Source: an archaeon
GTDB taxonomy: Archaea; Nanobdellota; Nanobdellia; SCGC-AAA011-G17; GW2011-AR17
Direction: 5' to 3'
DNA length: 64,000 bases
Assembly (NCBI GenBank): GCA_043825775.1
Contig: JBDRRK010000008.1
Location: 61,978 to 125,977, forward strand
The number at the start of each line of letters is the position of its first letter. Position 1 is the stretch's first letter. This document shows, one piece after another, positions 2,782 through 42,530 of the stretch. Below the pieces are notes generated by a model. The model saw nothing but the letters and a program-made list of their open reading frames with translations, was not told the DNA's origin and did not search any database. A program made the translations under genes and the position numbers.

Positions 2782-3541
2782 TTATATCACTTTGAGGTTT
2801 TTCTTTAAAAAGTTTTCTAAAATAATCTAATTCCGCATGAAAATCAACTTCAATCCATTTTTCACCATCAATTTCATGTGTATGGACATCATATCCCTTT
2901 TCATGTAAATGTGTAAAGGTTTCTAACCAAAAATTATTCATGTGTTGTTGACTCCTAACTAACTCTTCAAGAATATCTTTATAGACTTTAATATGTCTTT
3001 CTCCTGAGACCTTTACTAGTCCTGGAGATTCAGCATGTATTTCTGGATGTTCTATTTCTTTACTTACTCTTGAAGCTGTATTCCTTTCTGTTAGAGTCAC
3101 TTTCATATCAGAGGCTTGGTATTTTGCTAAATCTTTTTTTCTTATTGATAAGATTATTCCTTCACTTGAGTTTTGTACGAAATCTCTGAAAACTTCTGGT
3201 TCAAAAACATTATCCCCATTTGTTATCATAAAATCTCCAGTCATTTCTGGTTTTGCAAACCAAAGAGACACTAAATTGTTGGAAGTAGCATAAAAAGGAT
3301 TGTATATTGTTTTAATTTTTAATCCATTTTTTTCATAAGAAGATATTTTTGCTTCAATTTGATGAGCTAGATAACCTACAACTAAAACAACTTCATCTAT
3401 AACTCCTGATTTTTGTATACTATCTAATTGTCTTTCAAGAAGAGTCATACCTTCACCAAAGTCCACTAATGGTTTTGGAGTATTTCTTGTCAAAGGCATT
3501 AATCTTGTGCCTATTCCTGCTGCTAGAATTATTAGTTTCAT
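2717..3541 (-). CDS. Sugar/alcohol-phosphate nucleotidyltransferase (cytidylyltransferase-like)
   Basis: N-terminus MKLIILAAGIGTRLMPLTRNTPKPLV is the canonical G-x-G-T-R-L nucleotidyltransferase motif. Its 3' end overlaps the downstream CDP-alcohol phosphatidyltransferase by 65 nt. Confidence 0.65.
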   Translation of the reverse strand: MKLIILAAGIGTRLMPLTRNTPKPLVDFGEGMTLLERQLDSIQKSGVIDEVVLVVGYLAHQIEAKISSYEKNGLKIKTIYNPFYATSNNLVSLWFAKPEMTGDFMITNGDNVFEPEVFRDFVQNSSEGIILSIRKKDLAKYQASDMKVTLTERNTASRVSKEIEHPEIHAESPGLVKVSGERHIKVYKDILEELVRSQQHMNNFWLETFTHLHEKGYDVHTHEIDGEKWIEVDFHAELDYFRKLFKEKPQSDINADTRQESSYGEGSRLEGSNL

Positions 3542-33868: not shown

Positions 33869-34204
33869 ATGGAAATAACAATTTATGAACGAGGAGTGGC
33901 TCCAGAACAAAGTAATCCTTTTTATTGGGGAAATATTGAAGAAGCATTATTATCAGAAGGGATTGCACCTATAGATGATAGAGAATTGAGAGGTTTTACT
34001 TATGTGCTTGATGGTGTGAAGATTATTTGTGATTTATATTTTAATGGAGAGGATGAAGAACAAAGGATAAGATTTGATGGTGAAGATGAAGCAAGTATTA
34101 GGCAAGCTGAAGCTAAATTGAAAGTACTTATTCAGAATACTCCACAAAATAAAGGTTCAAATCCTAGTTTACTTGATATTCTTTTAAAATTTAAAGAAAA
34201 TTAA
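33869..34204 (+). CDS. Hypothetical acidic protein
   Basis: 111-aa ORF. No motif recognised. Confidence 0.3.
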   Translation: MEITIYERGVAPEQSNPFYWGNIEEALLSEGIAPIDDRELRGFTYVLDGVKIICDLYFNGEDEEQRIRFDGEDEASIRQAEAKLKVLIQNTPQNKGSNPSLLDILLKFKEN

Positions 34205-35928: not shown

Positions 35929-37047
35929 TTACTTGACGCTACGCTCCGAGTTGTAAAGTTTTAAGTATCTGTTTATTTCTTTAGTTGATATTTCTTTTGA
36001 AAATCTATTTTCAAATTCAGTTAAAATACCTTTTCTAAATTTGTAAGTATCTGCATGCTTTGAATAGGCTAACCAGCCCTCTAAAAAATCATAGATTTTA
36101 TCATACTCAATAACTCCCTTTTTATATTTAATTGTATATAATTTAAATTTGGATTTAAATCTTCTTTTATTTTTCTTTTGAATAATCTTATGATTTGGAA
36201 AAATCTTGAAACCTAAAAAGTCTGTTCCTCCTTGTAATGGAAATATTTTTGTTTTATCTGGATGTAGTTCTATATCTAATTTATTCATTAGAAATGATTC
36301 TATTTTCTCTTTGTAATTTTCTAAGCTTTCTTTTGATTTGTCAAGAATGACGAAATCATCAACATAACGAATGTAGTATTTTACTTTAAGTTTATGTTTT
36401 ACAAAAGAATCCAGTTCATTGAGGTAAAGATTCGCAAAGAATTGGGAGGTTAAGTTGCCAAGAGGCATGCTTTTTTCTGTTCGCCCCCTCCCCCCAATTG
36501 GATTTTGAAGGATAATTTTTATTAACCACAAAACTCTTGAATCTTTGATTTTCTTTTGTATTATTTCAAATAAAATTTTGTGATTAATATTCTCAAAATA
36601 CTTTTTTATATCTGCCTTAAGTACATATGCTTTTGAAATGTTATTATTTGTTACTTTTCTCTTGAAATAATCAAACCTTTCAATTGCTTTTAAAGAACCC
36701 TTGTTAATTTGATTTGCATATGAATCTAAGATAAAACCTTTTTCAAATATTGGGGCTATTATACTGTAGAGTGCGTGATGGATAACTCTATCTCTAAAAA
36801 TAGATTTGCTGATTTTTCTTGTTTTTGGATCTCTTATTATGAAATTTACAAGAGGCTTGGGCCTATAGATATGAAAAATTAATTCTGAATGGAGCAAAGA
36901 GAGATTGTTTTTAAGATTTCTTTTGAATTCAATTACATAGTCCTTTGTTGTCTTATTCTTTCTTGCTCTTTTGAATGCAAGTTTTAGGTTTTGAATACTA
37001 CACAATTCCTGCCATAAATCTCTTGTCATTATGAAATGCCTCAGCAT
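35929..37047 (-). CDS. Diversity-generating retroelement reverse transcriptase (DGR RT)
   Basis: RT motifs ADIKKYFENINH (domain 2), IRYVDDFVIL (YxDD) and the DGR-specific LGNLTSQ ([I/L]GxxxSQ) are present. The six-frame ORF runs to 37182 only because it reads through the template repeat. The likely true start is the ATG at 37047 (MLRHFIMT…), 13 nt downstream of the TR. Confidence 0.85.
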   Translation of the reverse strand: MLRHFIMTRDLWQELCSIQNLKLAFKRARKNKTTKDYVIEFKRNLKNNLSLLHSELIFHIYRPKPLVNFIIRDPKTRKISKSIFRDRVIHHALYSIIAPIFEKGFILDSYANQINKGSLKAIERFDYFKRKVTNNNISKAYVLKADIKKYFENINHKILFEIIQKKIKDSRVLWLIKIILQNPIGGRGRTEKSMPLGNLTSQFFANLYLNELDSFVKHKLKVKYYIRYVDDFVILDKSKESLENYKEKIESFLMNKLDIELHPDKTKIFPLQGGTDFLGFKIFPNHKIIQKKNKRRFKSKFKLYTIKYKKGVIEYDKIYDFLEGWLAYSKHADTYKFRKGILTEFENRFSKEISTKEINRYLKLYNSERSVK

Positions 37048-37060
37048 ATCTTGGACTATT

Positions 37061-37157
37061 CCACGAAGCCAATTGTTAGCATTGTCAACGTTCCTGTCAT
37101 TAGCATTGAAGTTGGAATCGTTGTCAAAGTTGTTCAACCTGCAAAGCCTCGCAACAG
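37061..37157 (-). repeat. DGR template repeat (TR), 97 nt
   Basis: 97-nt imperfect direct repeat of 37499..37595. It retains adenines on the coding (minus) strand and encodes 10 Asn AAY codons (…LCRLNNFDNDSNFNANDRNVDNANNWLRG). Confidence 0.8.
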
Positions 37158-37338
37158 ATAGCTCATTTACTGTATTTTGCACTGCTGTTTCAACCCTATA
37201 ATTCGAAAATTATGTGTCACAGCTGTATTTCATGACAGATTAACTGCCTTAGCAAAAGAGCATGTAGTCCAACACTACTACTCCATAAGAGAAGCAATGC
37301 TGAGACAAAGAAAATAAAAAGATAATAGTTAATAAAAA

Positions 37339-38154
37339 TTATTGTTTTTTTAGCTCTAATAAAATCATTTCTTCCAATCCGGATAGATTCAAATCTTTCA
37401 ATACTAAACTTATCTGTTCTGAAGAATATGTTTCTGATTTAGGCTGTGAAATTTCCTGCGGAGTTTTTTGCGTGTCGCCTACGGCGCTGTTAGGTACCCC
37501 ACGAAGCCAATCGCCAGCATTGTCAACGTCCCTGCCATTCGCAACGAAGTTGGAATCGAAGACAAAGCCGTTCAACCCGCAAAGCCCCGCAACAGCACCA
37601 TCTTCTGGAATTGTATCCATAACATATGTGTGTGTTGAAGTCCAGATTCTTGTTGACCTTTTTCCTGCATCTTTTAACATTTTAAAATTAGCTGCAAGAG
37701 TTTTATCTCTACCAAAAGGGACATGAACTAATTTTTGCTCTTCTGGATTTAAATCAGAAAGTGAAGGATCTGAAATATTCACTTCAAATCTATCATAAGC
37801 ATTATTCGGTTTTATGAACCTCACTTTTGAAAGATCTACTGTTACTATCCCCTGTCCAAGAGCCTTTCTTAACTCTTGTTGTGCAGGGTTATAACTTCCA
37901 GTTGTTCTCAGCTGGGAAATTGCATCATCTAAATTTCTTAGTATTAATGGATATTTTGAAAAAGTCAAACCTTGCCTTGTGTATATAGGATTGTCTCCAG
38001 TTATGTACCATTTGTTTTTCGTAACTGCATTATCCAAACCTACATTGTTAATTTCTCTTCTTCTTGCATTTGTTATTTTCAAAGCTCTGTCCAGACTTTT
38101 GAATTTGTCTGCATTTTGTGCAAACGAACCTTGTATCTCATATGTTTGTGCCAT
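37339..38154 (-). CDS. DGR target (variable) protein with C-terminal variable repeat
   Basis: 271-aa ORF on the same strand as the RT. Its 3' region contains the VR (…LCGLNGFVFDSNFVANGRDVDNAGDWLRG…). The WLRG end and Asn/Asp-rich variable scaffold resemble C-type-lectin/FGE-fold DGR targets. Confidence 0.75.
   Translation of the reverse strand: MAQTYEIQGSFAQNADKFKSLDRALKITNARRREINNVGLDNAVTKNKWYITGDNPIYTRQGLTFSKYPLILRNLDDAISQLRTTGSYNPAQQELRKALGQGIVTVDLSKVRFIKPNNAYDRFEVNISDPSLSDLNPEEQKLVHVPFGRDKTLAANFKMLKDAGKRSTRIWTSTHTYVMDTIPEDGAVAGLCGLNGFVFDSNFVANGRDVDNAGDWLRGVPNSAVGDTQKTPQEISQPKSETYSSEQISLVLKDLNLSGLEEMILLELKKQ
37499..37595 (-). repeat. DGR variable repeat (VR), 97 nt, inside the target gene
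   Basis: 82/97 identical to the TR. Fourteen of the 15 mismatches are at positions that are A in the TR coding strand. The first 13 nt on the plus strand (3' end on the coding strand, GGCTTCGTGG) are identical. Confidence 0.8.
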
Positions 38155-38380: not shown

Positions 38381-38728
38381 ATGAAATTAAAACCGTTGAT
38401 GCCCAGTTTAAGGGAAAAGAAGCGTTATATTGCTTTTGAAATTAAATCAAAGGAAAAATTATCCTTTAATGAGGCAAAACAGGCTATAGAGGACAAGATG
38501 AAGGAATTTATCGGTACACTAGGTATGGCAAATGCTGGACCAATATTCCTAAATGATTGGGAAGATAATAAAGGAATTGTTCGAGTTAATTCGAAATTCG
38601 TTGATCATACTAAAGCTTCATTGGCTTTGATTAAAGAAGTTAATGGTAAAAAAGTTTTATTCCAGAGCATAGGTGTTTCTGGAGTTATTGACAGATTAAG
38701 AAAGTCATATTTTAAAGGAGGAAAATAA
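38381..38728 (+). CDS. rnp2: RNase P protein component Pop5 (Rpp14 homologue)
   Basis: MKLKPLMPSLREKKRYIAFEI… matches the archaeal Pop5 N-terminus (LPP(S/T)LREK.RY.AFE). Sits in the conserved position upstream of psmA in the exosome superoperon. Confidence 0.75.
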   Translation: MKLKPLMPSLREKKRYIAFEIKSKEKLSFNEAKQAIEDKMKEFIGTLGMANAGPIFLNDWEDNKGIVRVNSKFVDHTKASLALIKEVNGKKVLFQSIGVSGVIDRLRKSYFKGGK

Positions 38729-38729
38729 A

Positions 38730-39434
38730 ATGCAAGAAGGTTCACATCAAATGATGGGTTACGACAGGGCTTCAACAATGTTCAGTCCTGATGGTAGATT
38801 ATTACAGGTAGAGTATGCTAAAGAGGCTGTAAAACAAGGTTCAACTGCAATTGGAATAGTGTGTAAAGATGGTGCTATTTTAATCGCTGATAAGAGAGTT
38901 TCTGATGAATTGATTATTTCAGATGCTGTTGAAAAGATTTTTCAAGTGGATAAGCATATTGGTGCTACTGCTGTTGGTTATGTTATGGACGGTAGAGTAT
39001 TGATTGAAAGAGCTCAATTAATTGCACAACAACACATGGTTACTTATTCAGTTCCAATGGAAACATTGAATTTGGTAAAAGAAGTTTCTGATATAAAACA
39101 GTCTTATACACAGTATGGTGGAGCAAGACCTTTTGGTGTTTCAGTATTGTTTGTAGGTGTTGATGATACAGGACCTTTACTGTATGTTACAGAACCAACT
39201 GGTATATTTTTTCAGTACAAAGCTACTGCTGTTGGAGAAAACTCAGATGCAATCAAACAAATTTTGAGAAAAGAGTATAATGAAAATATGTCTGTTGAGG
39301 ATGGTATCAAATTAGCAGTTAAAGCATTGAAAAAAGTTATGGTAAAAGATTTTGATGCAAAAAGAATTGATGGTGCTCTAATTTCACAGGCAACAAAAGA
39401 ATATTCAGTTATTGATAGGAAGAAGTTGAAATAA
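38730..39434 (+). CDS. psmA: Proteasome subunit alpha
   Basis: GYDRASTMFSPDGRLLQVEYA α-subunit signature is present. 234 aa. Confidence 0.9.
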   Translation: MQEGSHQMMGYDRASTMFSPDGRLLQVEYAKEAVKQGSTAIGIVCKDGAILIADKRVSDELIISDAVEKIFQVDKHIGATAVGYVMDGRVLIERAQLIAQQHMVTYSVPMETLNLVKEVSDIKQSYTQYGGARPFGVSVLFVGVDDTGPLLYVTEPTGIFFQYKATAVGENSDAIKQILRKEYNENMSVEDGIKLAVKALKKVMVKDFDAKRIDGALISQATKEYSVIDRKKLK

Positions 39435-39435
39435 A

Positions 39436-40137
39436 ATGGTAAATGTAGACAAAGCAATAATTGCAAGGATAAAGAAAGAAGGAGAGATCTTTGAGATTTT
39501 AGTAGATTGTGACAATGCTTTGGCTTATAGAGCAGGTACTATCGAGAGCCTAGATGATGTTCTTGCAACAAAAGATATATTTAAAGATGTAAAAAAAGGT
39601 GAAAAGGCATCAGAAACGGATATGCAGAAGTTGTTTCATACAACAGATGCTATTGAAGTTGCTAAAATCATTCTAAAAAAAGGTGATATACAATTAACTG
39701 CAGATTATAGAAATAATTTAAGAGAAGAAAAAAGAAAACAAATTATTTCTTTTATTCACAGAAATGCAGTTGATGCAAAAACAGGTTTTCCACATCCTCC
39801 ACAAAGAATTGAAGATGCAATCGAGCATTGTAAATGTAAGGTTGATGAATTTAAATCTGTTGATGCACAAGTTCAAGAAATTGTGAACAAAATTAGAGAA
39901 ATATTACCCATTAGATTTGAAGTTAGAGAATTACAAATAACTATTCCTGCTGCTTATACTGGGCAGGCTTATGGTGTTTTGAAAAAGTTTGGTAAGGTTT
40001 TAAAAGAAGATTGGTTGAATGATGGAAAGCTAAGTATGGTTTTAGAAATACCAGCTGGTTTGCAAGAGAATCTTGAAAATGAAATGAATGGTTTAACAAA
40101 AGGTGATGTTGATATTAAGATTTTAAAGAAAAAATAG
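39436..40137 (+). CDS. Ribosome maturation protein SDO1/SBDS homologue
   Basis: MVNVDKAIIARIKKEGEIFEILVDCDNALAYRAG is typical of the SBDS N-terminal FYSH domain. Conserved superoperon position. Confidence 0.8.
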   Translation: MVNVDKAIIARIKKEGEIFEILVDCDNALAYRAGTIESLDDVLATKDIFKDVKKGEKASETDMQKLFHTTDAIEVAKIILKKGDIQLTADYRNNLREEKRKQIISFIHRNAVDAKTGFPHPPQRIEDAIEHCKCKVDEFKSVDAQVQEIVNKIREILPIRFEVRELQITIPAAYTGQAYGVLKKFGKVLKEDWLNDGKLSMVLEIPAGLQENLENEMNGLTKGDVDIKILKKK

Positions 40138-40148
40138 GAGACAAAAAA

Positions 40149-40850
40149 ATGAGTAAATTATTAGTAGAAGACAAACAAATTGTGGTTCCAGGGGATATCC
40201 TAGCTGAAGGAATGGATTATCTACCATCATATGGAGCTACTAGAGACAATGATAAAATTGTTTCAATGCAAGTGGGATTGGCTAGTATTAATGGAAGAGT
40301 AATTAAAATTATTCCTCTAAGTGGAAGATATGTTCCAAAAAAAGACGACACAGTTATTGGTTATGTTAAGGATCTAACTTTTAGTTCTTGGTTTATTGAT
40401 GTAGGCTATGCTTATGATGGAAACTTAAACATGAAAGAAGCTACCTCTGATTTTATTGAAAGAGGAGCAAGTTTGAGTAAATATTTCAAACCAGGAGATA
40501 TATTAATAACAAAGATAGTTAATGTGACAAAAGAAAAAGCAATTGATCTATCAATGAAAGGACCAGGCTTAAGAAAAATAACTTCCGGAAAGGTTATTGA
40601 AATTACTCCTTCAAAGGTTCCAAGAGTTGTTGGAAAACAAGGAAGCATGATTTCAATGATTAAAGAGAAAACAGGTTGCTCAATATTTGCTGGTCAGAAT
40701 GGAAGAATTTGGATTAGTGGTGAGAATCCTGAAATGGAACTTGTTGCAACTAAGGCAATTAATTTGATTGATGAAAGGTCACATGTAACAGGCTTAACTG
40801 ATTTAGTTAAAGAGTTCTTAGACAGTAATGTTAAGGAGAATAAAAAATGA
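40149..40850 (+). CDS. rrp4: Exosome complex RNA-binding subunit Rrp4 (S1 + KH)
   Basis: N-terminal VVPGDILAEG, S1 and KH (GKQGSMISMIKEKTG) segments are present. Confidence 0.85.
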   Translation: MSKLLVEDKQIVVPGDILAEGMDYLPSYGATRDNDKIVSMQVGLASINGRVIKIIPLSGRYVPKKDDTVIGYVKDLTFSSWFIDVGYAYDGNLNMKEATSDFIERGASLSKYFKPGDILITKIVNVTKEKAIDLSMKGPGLRKITSGKVIEITPSKVPRVVGKQGSMISMIKEKTGCSIFAGQNGRIWISGENPEMELVATKAINLIDERSHVTGLTDLVKEFLDSNVKENKK

Positions 40851-41554
40851 AATATACAAAAAGGCATGATGGAAGGAAATTTGATGAAATTCGGCCTATA
40901 GAAGCTAAAGTTGGTGTTGTGAAAAATGCTTTAGGTTCTGCAATGTTTAAATGTGGAAAAACTATTGCAGTAGCTGCTGTTTATGGACCAAAAGAATTGT
41001 TTCCTAAACCTTTACAAGATCCTAATAAGGGTAAATTAAGATGTACATATAATATGATGGCTTTTTCAGGTGCTGGAGACAGAGTTAGACCTGGACCAAG
41101 CAGAAGGAGTAAGGAAATTGGTGTAGTAACTGAAAATGCATTAAATACTGTTTTAGATTTATCAGCATTTCCAAAAACAATTGTTGATGTACACATTGAA
41201 TTGATTCAAACAGATGCAGGAACAAGATGTGCAGGTATTACTGCTGCTGCAATGGCATTAGCTGATGCAGGATTTAGAATGAAAGATATGGTTGCTGCAG
41301 TTGCTTGTGGTGTTGTTGGTGGAACTCCTTTAGTAGACTTAGATAAAGTTGAAGAGGATTATGAACATGGTTCTGTTGATATACCAATCGCAATGATGCC
41401 AAGAACTGGAGAAATAACTTTACTTCAGTTAGATGGTGAAGTGGATAAAGAAGACTTAATGAAAGCTATTGAACTTGCTAAAGTTGGATGTATGCAAGTT
41501 TATGAAGTACAGAAAAAAGCCTTGAAAGCAAAATATGAGGGGGCAAAAAAATGA
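40847..41554 (+). CDS. rrp41: Exosome complex exonuclease Rrp41 (RNase PH family)
   Basis: RNase PH fold (…RHDGRKFDEIRPIEAKVGVV…DAGTRCAGITAA…). Translationally coupled to rrp4 and rrp42. Confidence 0.85.
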   Translation: MKYTKRHDGRKFDEIRPIEAKVGVVKNALGSAMFKCGKTIAVAAVYGPKELFPKPLQDPNKGKLRCTYNMMAFSGAGDRVRPGPSRRSKEIGVVTENALNTVLDLSAFPKTIVDVHIELIQTDAGTRCAGITAAAMALADAGFRMKDMVAAVACGVVGGTPLVDLDKVEEDYEHGSVDIPIAMMPRTGEITLLQLDGEVDKEDLMKAIELAKVGCMQVYEVQKKALKAKYEGAKK

Positions 41555-42321
41555 TATCAAAAGCATATATCCAAGATATTGTAAAAAAAGGATTTAGAGA
41601 AGATGGAAGAAAATTTGATGAATATAGGTCTATTGAAATTGAATATGGTATTTCTTCAAAATCTGCAGAAGGTAGTGCAAGAGTAAAAATTGGAGATACT
41701 GAAGTTGTTGCAGGAGTAAAAATGGATACTGGTAAGCCATATCCTGACAAACCTAATGAAGGTTCAATAATGGTTAATGTTGAATTAGTACCTTTAGCTT
41801 CTGAATTATATGAGGCTGGTCCTCCAGATATTAATGCAATTGAATTGTCAAGAGTTGTTGACAGAGGAATTAGAGAATGTCATGCAATTAACTTTGAAAA
41901 ATTGTGCATTGAAGAAGGAGAAAAAGTTTGGATGATTTTCATAGACATCTATCCAATAAATGCAGATGGTAATTTAGCAGATGCTTGTGCATTAGCTGCT
42001 ATGGCTGCTTTGAAAGATGCAAAGTTTCCAACATTAACTGATGGAATTGTTGATTATAAAACAAAAACCAATAATCCATTACCTCTACAAAAAGATCCAG
42101 TAGAGTGTACAGTATGGAAAGTAGCTGATAATTTTTTAATAGACCCAACTATTGATGAAGAATTCGCATCTGATGCAAGATTAACCTTTGCTTTCACTAA
42201 TGAAGGTAAAATTGCTGCTATGCAAAAGGGTGGACAGAGTCCATTAACTGCAGAAGACATTGATAGGATGGCTATACTTGCTGCTAAAAAAACAGAAGAG
42301 TTAAGGAGTAAACTGAAATAA
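41551..42321 (+). CDS. rrp42: Exosome complex subunit Rrp42 (inactive RNase PH-like)
   Basis: …[18 protein letters not shown]… RNase PH-like. Follows rrp41. Confidence 0.85.
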
Positions 42322-42530
42322 TGGAAAAACTAACAAAATACGAAAAAGCTAGAATAATTGGTGCAAGGGCATTGCAAATTGCTATGGGTGCTCCAATCTT
42401 GTTAAAGATGAAAAAAGCGGATTTTGAAGCTTTGAGGTTTAATCCAATAGAGATTGCAAAGGAAGAGTTTGACAAAGATATATTGCCCTTAACAATAAGA
42501 AGACCTTTACCTGATAAATTAGGTAAATAA
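42321..42530 (+). CDS. rpoK: DNA-directed RNA polymerase subunit K (Rpo6/Rpb6 homologue)
   Basis: [21 protein letters not shown] is the Rpb6/RpoK signature. 69 aa. Confidence 0.8.

Follow-up and report, generated by a model that had tools for sequence, protein, structure and literature searches.

Positions 35929 to 38154 on the minus strand of a 64,000-nucleotide (nt) stretch of archaeal DNA (assembly GCA_043825775.1, contig JBDRRK010000008.1; the whole stretch is referred to here as the window) very probably constitute a compact chromosomal diversity-generating retroelement (DGR) of the Nanoarchaeota/DPANN type that has no Avd accessory gene. Thousands of DGRs have already been catalogued in DPANN and Candidate Phyla Radiation (CPR) genomes. 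The parts of this cassette match those described by Paul et al. (2015; PMC4372165) and Handa et al. (2016; PMC5006420); it is thus another case of an already described class, and the only by-product of the analysis that looks unreported is an RNA element, RT-16, abutting the template repeat. On the minus strand, the gene order is a target gene with a variable repeat (VR), the RT-16 RNA, the template repeat (TR), and a reverse transcriptase (RT) gene directly downstream of the TR. The main components are as follows.

37339 to 38154, minus strand: target gene, encoding a 271-amino-acid (aa) protein predicted to be an AvpA-type variable protein with a C-type-lectin fold
37495 to 37595, minus strand: VR, 97 nt (37499 to 37595) plus a GGTA boundary, from an ungapped comparison
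37153 to 37306, minus strand: RT-16 RNA motif (RF03019), abutting the TR; the Rfam match covers 37153 to 37303, and 3 nt were added at the 5' end to accommodate a helix described below (helix I)
37057 to 37157, minus strand: TR, 97 nt (37061 to 37157) plus AATA, from an ungapped comparison
35929 to 37029, minus strand: DGR RT, 366 aa from the ATG at 37029 (MTRDLWQE...), with an RVT_1 match (E value, 7.6e-21)

The mismatch spectrum of the TR/VR pair carries most of the argument. Between positions 34000 and 42000, the only strong direct-repeat family consists of these two 97-nt copies (37061 to 37157 and 37499 to 37595; 85% identity), which differ at 15 sites. Read on the minus strand, 14 of the differences fall on TR adenines (10 A>G and 4 A>T) and one is T>G. 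Given 27 adenines in the 97 nt of the TR, the hypergeometric probability of at least 14 of 15 mismatches on A is 9.2e-9. This recount agrees with the initial annotation of the window, which had placed 14 of 15 differences at template adenines, and its list of codon changes was reproduced exactly in the frame of the open reading frame (ORF) at 37339 to 38154 (AGG>GGG twice, AAC>GGC twice, GAC>GTC, AAC>TTC, AAT>GTT, GAC>GGC, AAC>GAC, and AAT>GAT), as was the silent GCT>GCG, the lone non-adenine change. At the protein level these are R>G (twice), N>G (twice), D>V, N>F, N>V, D>G, and N>D (twice). The 10 recoded codons therefore comprise 6 Asn, 2 Asp, and 2 Arg; the earlier heading of 7 Asn plus Asp/Arg codons was one too high for Asn.

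The homology continues for 4 nt beyond the 97-nt repeat, where AATA in the TR faces GGTA in the VR and adds two further A>G differences. With this extension, the repeat measures 101 nt and 16 of its 17 mismatches lie at TR adenines. The TR holds 29 adenines in these 101 nt and 10 AAY codons. Seventeen of its codons are able to change the encoded amino acid and none is able to become a stop codon, corresponding to approximately 4e15 possible protein variants. A query in which every A of the TR was replaced by N recovered no further VR-like copy in the 64-kb window.

The two copies are direct repeats on the same strand, 438 nt apart, as would be the products of an ordinary tandem or segmental duplication that had diverged by random mutation or gene conversion and lay beside an RT gene by coincidence. 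Such an origin does not account for 14 of 15 differences on the adenines of one copy only (P = 9e-9), a bias that persisted on realignment. The homology also ends sharply on both sides (at the upstream end, at CTGTTGCG). Because the similarity stops at both repeat ends, the pair is not a piece of a longer duplication, the other possibility that the initial annotation had raised against its own interpretation. The same pattern moreover occurs beside homologous RTs in approximately 65 independent loci. We regard coincidental duplication as hardly conceivable; the reading of the two repeats as the TR and VR of a DGR is upheld by the adenine-specific spectrum, the adjoining RT, the boundary motifs, and the related loci.

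The RT translation contains the motifs YVDD and LGNLTSQ. Its closest solved relative is the Bordetella phage RT bRT (8ub7, from the series 8ub7 to 8ube; E value, 2.1e-42; residues 9 to 337), and group II intron RTs of solved structure gave weaker matches (E value, 2.5e-26). Judged by its best solved relative and its motifs, the RT is assigned to the DGR clade. Gene callers, including the Logan call on a second copy of the locus (L002; see below), give a 417-aa RT model (GTG at 37182; 35929 to 37182), which is probably a gene-calling artefact, as the conserved N terminus starts with MTRDLWQE at the ATG at 37029. The RDLWQE start is conserved among relatives, and an upstream ATG is out of frame or followed by a stop in two of them (L001 and L029). 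The 417-aa model can extend in frame across the entire TR, since that repeat retains the stop-free frame of the target.

NCBIfam models point elsewhere, with a group II intron RT/maturase as the best match (171 bits; cutoff, 300), followed by other subthreshold matches to Drt3a and retron RTs. Weinberg et al. (2017; PMC5737381), who defined the motifs RT-1 to RT-19 by their proximity to RT genes, assigned RT-10 alone to a DGR (as the BPP-1 spacer) and guessed that other RT motifs might belong to DGRs and that many are retron RNAs. These two observations would suit an RT from another retroelement (a group II intron, a retron, or a defence system) with RT-16 as its RNA, for example, a retron msr/msd, and with an incidental repeat pair. 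All of the NCBIfam matches are, however, far under their cutoffs, the best solved relative is bRT, and RT-16 in every case abuts an adenine-biased TR. No group II intron RNA domains were detected by Rfam in the 64 kb. The group II intron, retron, and defence-RT readings were therefore rejected, and we consider an origin in another retroelement to be very improbable.

One genome per species was scanned for related RTs, which yielded 207 RT relatives, of which 80 were kept. Archaeal relatives (51 to 73% identical to the window RT) came from metagenome-assembled genomes (MAGs) of Nanoarchaeota, Woesearchaeota, Pacearchaeota, Micrarchaeota, and Aenigmatarchaeota, and CPR bacterial relatives were 39 to 47% identical. 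An adenine-biased repeat pair was present in approximately 65 of the 80 kept loci, including CPR loci with TR/VR pairs of 95 to 138 nt; loci with a related RT and such a pair number about 70. The gap from the TR to the RT was 10 to 50 nt in archaeal loci and approximately 430 nt in CPR loci. The latter distance fits architecture B3, TR-(avd)-RT, in the scheme of Wu et al. (2018; PMC5758913), and the window cassette matches their architecture A, which has no accessory gene. A locus in a Logan assembly (L001) is a second DGR with the same layout, a target 59% identical to that of the window, and all 16 of its mismatches at A. Its surroundings (genes for a CoA ligase, a cupin, and a P-type ATPase) differ from those of the window, which indicates that the cassette is not bound to a single genomic site. 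Some relatives are more elaborate: among L012 (VRs at 2269 to 2360 and 2964 to 3055), L021, L024, L055, L069, and L070, several carry two VRs, one in each of two paralogous targets that share one TR, and L070 has two separate TR/VR pairs.

The VR and TR end at closely related motifs, and a hairpin follows the VR only. The motifs at the initiation of mutagenic homing (IMH) and its TR counterpart (IMH*) were mapped as follows.

37495 to 37511, minus strand: IMH, consisting of 13 invariant nt (ATTGGCTTCGTGG) and GGTA, with TGGGGT at 37496 to 37501
37057 to 37073, minus strand: IMH*, consisting of the same 13 nt and AATA, with TGGAAT at 37058 to 37063
37476 to 37486, minus strand: GC-rich hairpin CGCC-GTA-GGCG, located within the target ORF, 9 nt past the downstream VR boundary, and encoding Ala-Val-Gly

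The suggestion that the last 13 coding nt, identical in both copies, form an IMH-like anchor was borne out. In Nanoarchaeota DGRs, the IMH contains TGGGGT and the IMH* contains TGGAAT (Paul et al., 2015), and both motifs are exact in the window. The functional boundary is thus the 13 identical nt plus a fixed difference, TGGGGT in the VR versus TGGAAT in the TR. The AA>GG change at the boundary was found in approximately 19 of 22 related TR/VR pairs, and the same IMH boundary in most related loci. Because the first AA>GG change is silent (GGA>GGG), the constraint acts on DNA rather than on protein. A few relatives depart from the rule: the VR of L008 (2667 to 2755, compared with 2199 to 2287) keeps GGAATA, and the VR boundary of L012 is GGAGTA. 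These VRs may no longer be recognisable targets, or the boundary rule may be looser than published.

GC content is 59% in the 32 nt 3' of the VR and 30% in the window as a whole, and only 0.11% of 32-nt windows reach as high a value, in line with the GC-rich patch noticed earlier beside the VR and not the TR. A GC-rich inverted repeat downstream of the IMH occurs in a minority of DGRs and is not strictly defining. The hairpin proposed within this patch fared less evenly. Two of its properties count against it: folded alone, the VR 3' flank was no better than shuffled sequences (z = +0.69), and the stem has only 4 bp. Among related archaeal loci, a GC-rich stem, 4 bp or longer and capped by a 3-nt loop, was present in 21 of 30 VR flanks versus 0 of 30 TR flanks, and the stems covary (GGCAGC/GCTGCC, GTGTTGC/GCAACAC, and AGTGCC/GGCACT). 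The significance of the window hairpin therefore lies in its being conserved, covarying, and VR-only in relatives and not in its own fold. The published Nanoarchaeota hairpins all have GRA trinucleotide loops and all lie inside the target gene (Paul et al., 2015), and the GTA loop of the window falls outside the GRA pattern of these (DUSEL4) elements. Given that the loops of the relatives are GAA, GGA, GTA, GCA, or AGA, the loop rule is better described as GNA or AGA. A GCAAAAA-type run of adenines (CGCAAAAAA; 37464 to 37472, minus strand), which encodes Gln-Lys in the window, follows the hairpin; such a run lies 2 to 6 nt after the VR hairpin, at the same place, in L001, L003, L005, L016 to L019, L027, L029, and L038.

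Residues ~186 to 220 of the 271-aa target protein are encoded by the VR, and the 51 aa after them form a C-terminal tail for which two helices are predicted; the TR is a separate, nontarget copy between RT-16 and the RT start. Searches of Pfam, NCBIfam, and PDB sequences with the target, as a single sequence and as a 61-sequence profile, produced no match. The 4D2 matches of the target profile in the PDB were discarded as spurious (a designed repeat protein). A word-indexed protein search returned the target itself and one homologue only, an identical protein being deposited as a hypothetical protein of an "archaeon" MAG. An exhaustive HMMER profile search recovered 331 target-family representatives (50% clustering), mostly of 220 to 300 aa; the family thus has at least 331 cluster representatives and is without a Pfam model.

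An AlphaFold2 model built from the 61-sequence alignment had a pLDDT of 90.8 and a pTM of 0.82, with values of 50 to 74 only in the last ~50 residues (the two helices). When this model was compared with the PDB by Foldseek, the single significant match was 5ioo_A (E value, 8.4e-6), the Nanoarchaeota DGR variable protein AvpA, with 11% identity in the structural alignment. AvpA was not recovered by phmmer or by the 61-sequence profile among PDB sequences. AvpA is a protein of 256 aa with an internal VR (residues 181 to 203) and a 46-residue extension that is predicted to form two helices and within which a hairpin/cruciform is encoded (Handa et al., 2016). The window target shares this anatomy (internal VR, two-helix tail, and hairpin encoded in the tail), with a larger VR (33 codons, 17 of them variable, versus 27 codons and 12 variable in AvpA). 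According to the model, the target has an AvpA-subclass C-type-lectin fold with the VR on the binding face, followed by a flexible C-terminal extension. The cassette is one more chromosomal DGR, and its divergent target family still follows the published Nanoarchaeota rules (the TGGGGT/TGGAAT boundary, the trinucleotide-loop hairpin inside the ORF, and the AvpA fold ending in a C-terminal tail).

The Avd accessory protein is found in approximately 74% of DGRs and hence is not defining, yet it is essential in the BPP-1 paradigm. No ORF of at least 50 aa was present between the VR and the RT in a scan of the cassette, and none of seven neighbouring small ORFs matched Avd or a four-helix bundle in Pfam or NCBIfam. 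The biochemistry of the window element must therefore differ at this point from that of BPP-1, which counts against the DGR reading.

RT-16, a motif to which no function has been assigned, is the sole Rfam match in the window (cmscan, 73.3 bits; gathering score, 50) and is matched end to end (model positions 1 to 158 of 158). As in the definition of the family (related to RT-11, RF03106), it lies upstream of an RT gene, here with the likely RT start 123 nt downstream. We found RT-16 in the window, in L001 (6692 to 6838), in 15 of the first 20 RT-related loci, and in all 12 further archaeal loci; apart from the window and L001, these amount to approximately 27 archaeal loci (L003 to L031, L038, L063, and L065). 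Of the loci among the first 20 that had no RT-16 call, two were just under the threshold and at least two were cut by contig ends. RT-16 was absent from all six CPR loci tested. For loci with a mapped TR and an above-threshold RT-16 (L013, where truncation of the contig shortens the mapped TR, was left out), the distance from the 3' end of RT-16 to the first base of the TR was between -5 and +4 nt in 22 of 24 cases. The overlaps of 5 nt in the window and 2 nt in L001 are within this range. The exceptions are L003, with an overlap of 15 nt, and L025, which is off only through a short blast alignment. Our literature search found no paper tying RT-16 to DGRs. The present data go beyond the Rfam description in that RT-16 is linked to DGRs, its 3' end marks the start of the TR, and its 5' end and the 3' strand of its P1 hairpin pair with sequences past the TR that lie outside the model.

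These pairings, together with the basal stem of RT-16, involve the following segments.

37297 to 37306, minus strand: helix I, 5' strand (GUCUCAGCAU), at the 5' edge of RT-16
37265 to 37276, minus strand: helix II, 5' strand (AGUGUUGGACUA), ending in the invariant A of the RT-16 motif CUACAYGC; proposed primer strand
37161 to 37170, minus strand: RT-16 basal stem, 3' strand (GUAAAUGAGC), with its partner at 37252 to 37261 in the Rfam structure; ends 3 nt before the TR
37047 to 37058, minus strand: helix II, 3' strand (UAGUCCAAGAUA), beginning with the UAG of GGAAUAG that immediately follows the TR; proposed strand on the template side
37038 to 37047, minus strand: helix I, 3' strand (AUGCUGAGGC), 9 to 18 nt upstream of the likely RT start codon

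The basal stem shows compensatory changes in the alignment of related loci (columns 56 to 66 with 206 to 216). Helix II pairs 12 nt whose last three are the CUA of CUACAYGC, in a fixed register, with 12 nt whose first three are the UAG of GGAAUAG. Over 22 loci, 81.8% of the cells of this helix were paired versus 65.6% in shuffles (0 of 500 shuffles reached the observed value), and controls slid out of register were 22 to 48% paired. Changes on both sides were seen in 10 of the 12 pairs, including CUA:UAG to CCA:UGG in four loci. Helix I is formed by ~9 nt at the 5' edge of RT-16 and a segment 10 to 25 nt past the TR, with a mean duplex energy of -16.7 kcal/mol for cognate versus -11.4 kcal/mol for noncognate strands (permutation p <= 5e-5). 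RNAalifold applied to the six closest relatives returned helix I as the outermost helix and missed helix II, five of the six sequences carrying an A-C mismatch at its fourth pair. The minimum free energy fold of the window RNA contains both helices (z = -2.0). Covariation thus supports a structure in which helices I and II would close the TR into a loop. An A/T-rich, TATA-like box (TTTTTATTAA; 37329 to 37338, minus strand) is located right after the target stop codon (37339 to 37341), ~25 nt upstream of the 5' strand of helix I, and suggests that a transcript carrying RT-16, the TR, and the RT may start at ~37306.

The arrangement resembles the priming junction of the BPP-1 DGR (mtd-avd-TR-Sp-brt, Sp being the spacer). 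In the cryo-electron microscopy structures of that system, the duplex of template and primer (TR118-129 paired to Sp47-56) has the priming nucleotide, Sp A56, as its last position; the cPRT-Stop duplex, in which avd369-379 pairs with Sp59-70, begins 2 nt further on; and the TR is looped out between the duplexes (Handa et al., 2018, PMC6182149; 2024, bioRxiv 10.1101/2023.10.23.563531). In the window RNA, the order is the primer strand (...GGACUA), a CAU linker, the basal-stem strand GCUCUUUUGC, the RT-16 body, the basal-stem strand GUAAAUGAGC, a UAU linker, the TR ending in AA, and the template-side strand UAGUCCAA. The proposed junction would accordingly share with BPP-1 a primer:template duplex ending in an A:U pair, a linker of 2 to 3 nt, a "stop" duplex, and a TR looped between the two. 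Further likenesses are the adenine-specific transfer from TR to VR, the full-length homology of the RT to bRT, the IMH/IMH* pair, the VR-only GC-rich hairpin, and a target with a C-type-lectin fold. The two systems differ in that the window element has no Avd and has its structured RNA (RT-16) 5' of the TR, which would make the junction circularly permuted. The first template base would be A in the window and is G in BPP-1, and the hairpin loop is 3 nt in the window and 4 nt in BPP-1. The conservation survey published with the BPP-1 work took in only 40 nt on the upstream side of the TR and 100 nt on its downstream side, for the most part in DGRs that contain Avd, and for this reason would have missed an RT-16 layout.

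On the BPP-1 paradigm, a transcript starting just past the target stop codon would carry RT-16, the 101-nt TR, and the RT mRNA, and the RT would copy the TR into cDNA with misincorporation opposite adenines. The comparative data suggest that synthesis could be primed in cis from RT-16, with helix II pairing the invariant ...CUA with the UAG directly 3' of the TR. The invariant A of CUACAYGC (37265) would pair with the U directly 3' of the TR, as the counterpart of Sp A56. Across a 3-nt linker, the basal stem of RT-16, 3 nt upstream of the TR, would end the copy as the counterpart of the cPRT-Stop duplex, and the third helix, joining the 5' edge of RT-16 to the 5' untranslated region of the RT, would close the whole RNA. 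In this manner RT-16 would set the start, the limits, and the end of adenine-mutagenic cDNA synthesis in the absence of Avd. The cDNA would then replace the VR, its homing directed by two VR-only features, the IMH (ATTGGCTTCGTGG-GGTA, whose GG stands in place of the AA of the TR) and the GC-rich hairpin that lies 9 nt downstream. As a result, as many as 17 codons (10 of which are AAY) would be recoded, without stops, on the predicted ligand-binding face of the AvpA-like target.

Two considerations temper the RNA part of this scheme. The cis-priming role is a hypothesis drawn entirely from analogy and covariation. Helices I and II also take both strands of the base of the P1 hairpin of the Rfam model; because the same strands are used, the two folds are mutually exclusive, and which of them is the active form is a choice that covariation does not decide. 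The competing P1 hairpin could serve as an on/off switch. Overall, we put slightly below an even chance the proposal that RT-16 serves Avd-less DPANN DGRs as their cis-acting "DGR RNA", with the avd/Sp scaffold of BPP-1 in circularly permuted form. The RT-16/TR association and the permuted primer/stop model are the part most worth following. The junction and its covarying helices provide a concrete RNA model for where cDNA would start and end in Avd-less DGRs, the link to the TR gives the orphan Rfam family RT-16 a likely function, and the 3' end of RT-16 could be used to mark TR starts computationally, and precisely, in archaeal DGRs.

The 14 adenine-specific changes in the present VR are the trace of one or more past rounds of mutagenic homing. 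Whether the element diversifies its target at present is a separate matter, on which the observations argue neither for nor against activity. The sole other copy of the locus (L002, from a second sequencing run) has an identical VR. Variant VRs of the target gave zero matches in a metagenome scan, and a looser 16-mer metagenome scan returned 120 loci, all chance matches unlike the cassette. The silent T>G, the one mismatch outside the adenines, implies some ordinary drift after the most recent homing. A decayed DGR, whose TR/VR pair records past homing and which no longer diversifies the protein, would agree with the identity of the VR in two independent assemblies, with this one mismatch, and with a hairpin stem at the minimum length of the family. 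Decay is less easily reconciled with a full-length RT ORF with its catalytic motifs, an RT-16 score above the Rfam gathering threshold, exact IMH and IMH* motifs, a TR that keeps 10 AAY codons and no stop-prone codons, and helices I and II that are better paired here than in several relatives. We therefore consider decay unlikely and favor an intact DGR.

The window is archaeal, and the cassette is flanked by genes for threonyl-tRNA synthetase, diphthine synthase, RNase P Rpp14, proteasome alpha, SBDS, and exosome subunits. It differs from the Nanoarchaeota (DUSEL4) DGRs in its position between diphthine synthase and the RNase P/proteasome/exosome operon. The latter genes (RNase P Rpp14, proteasome alpha, SBDS, and exosome Rrp4, Rrp41, and Rrp42) occupy 38381 to 42530 on the plus strand, directly beside the DGR, and the same archaeal cluster includes a small ORF at 42321 to 42530 (plus strand).

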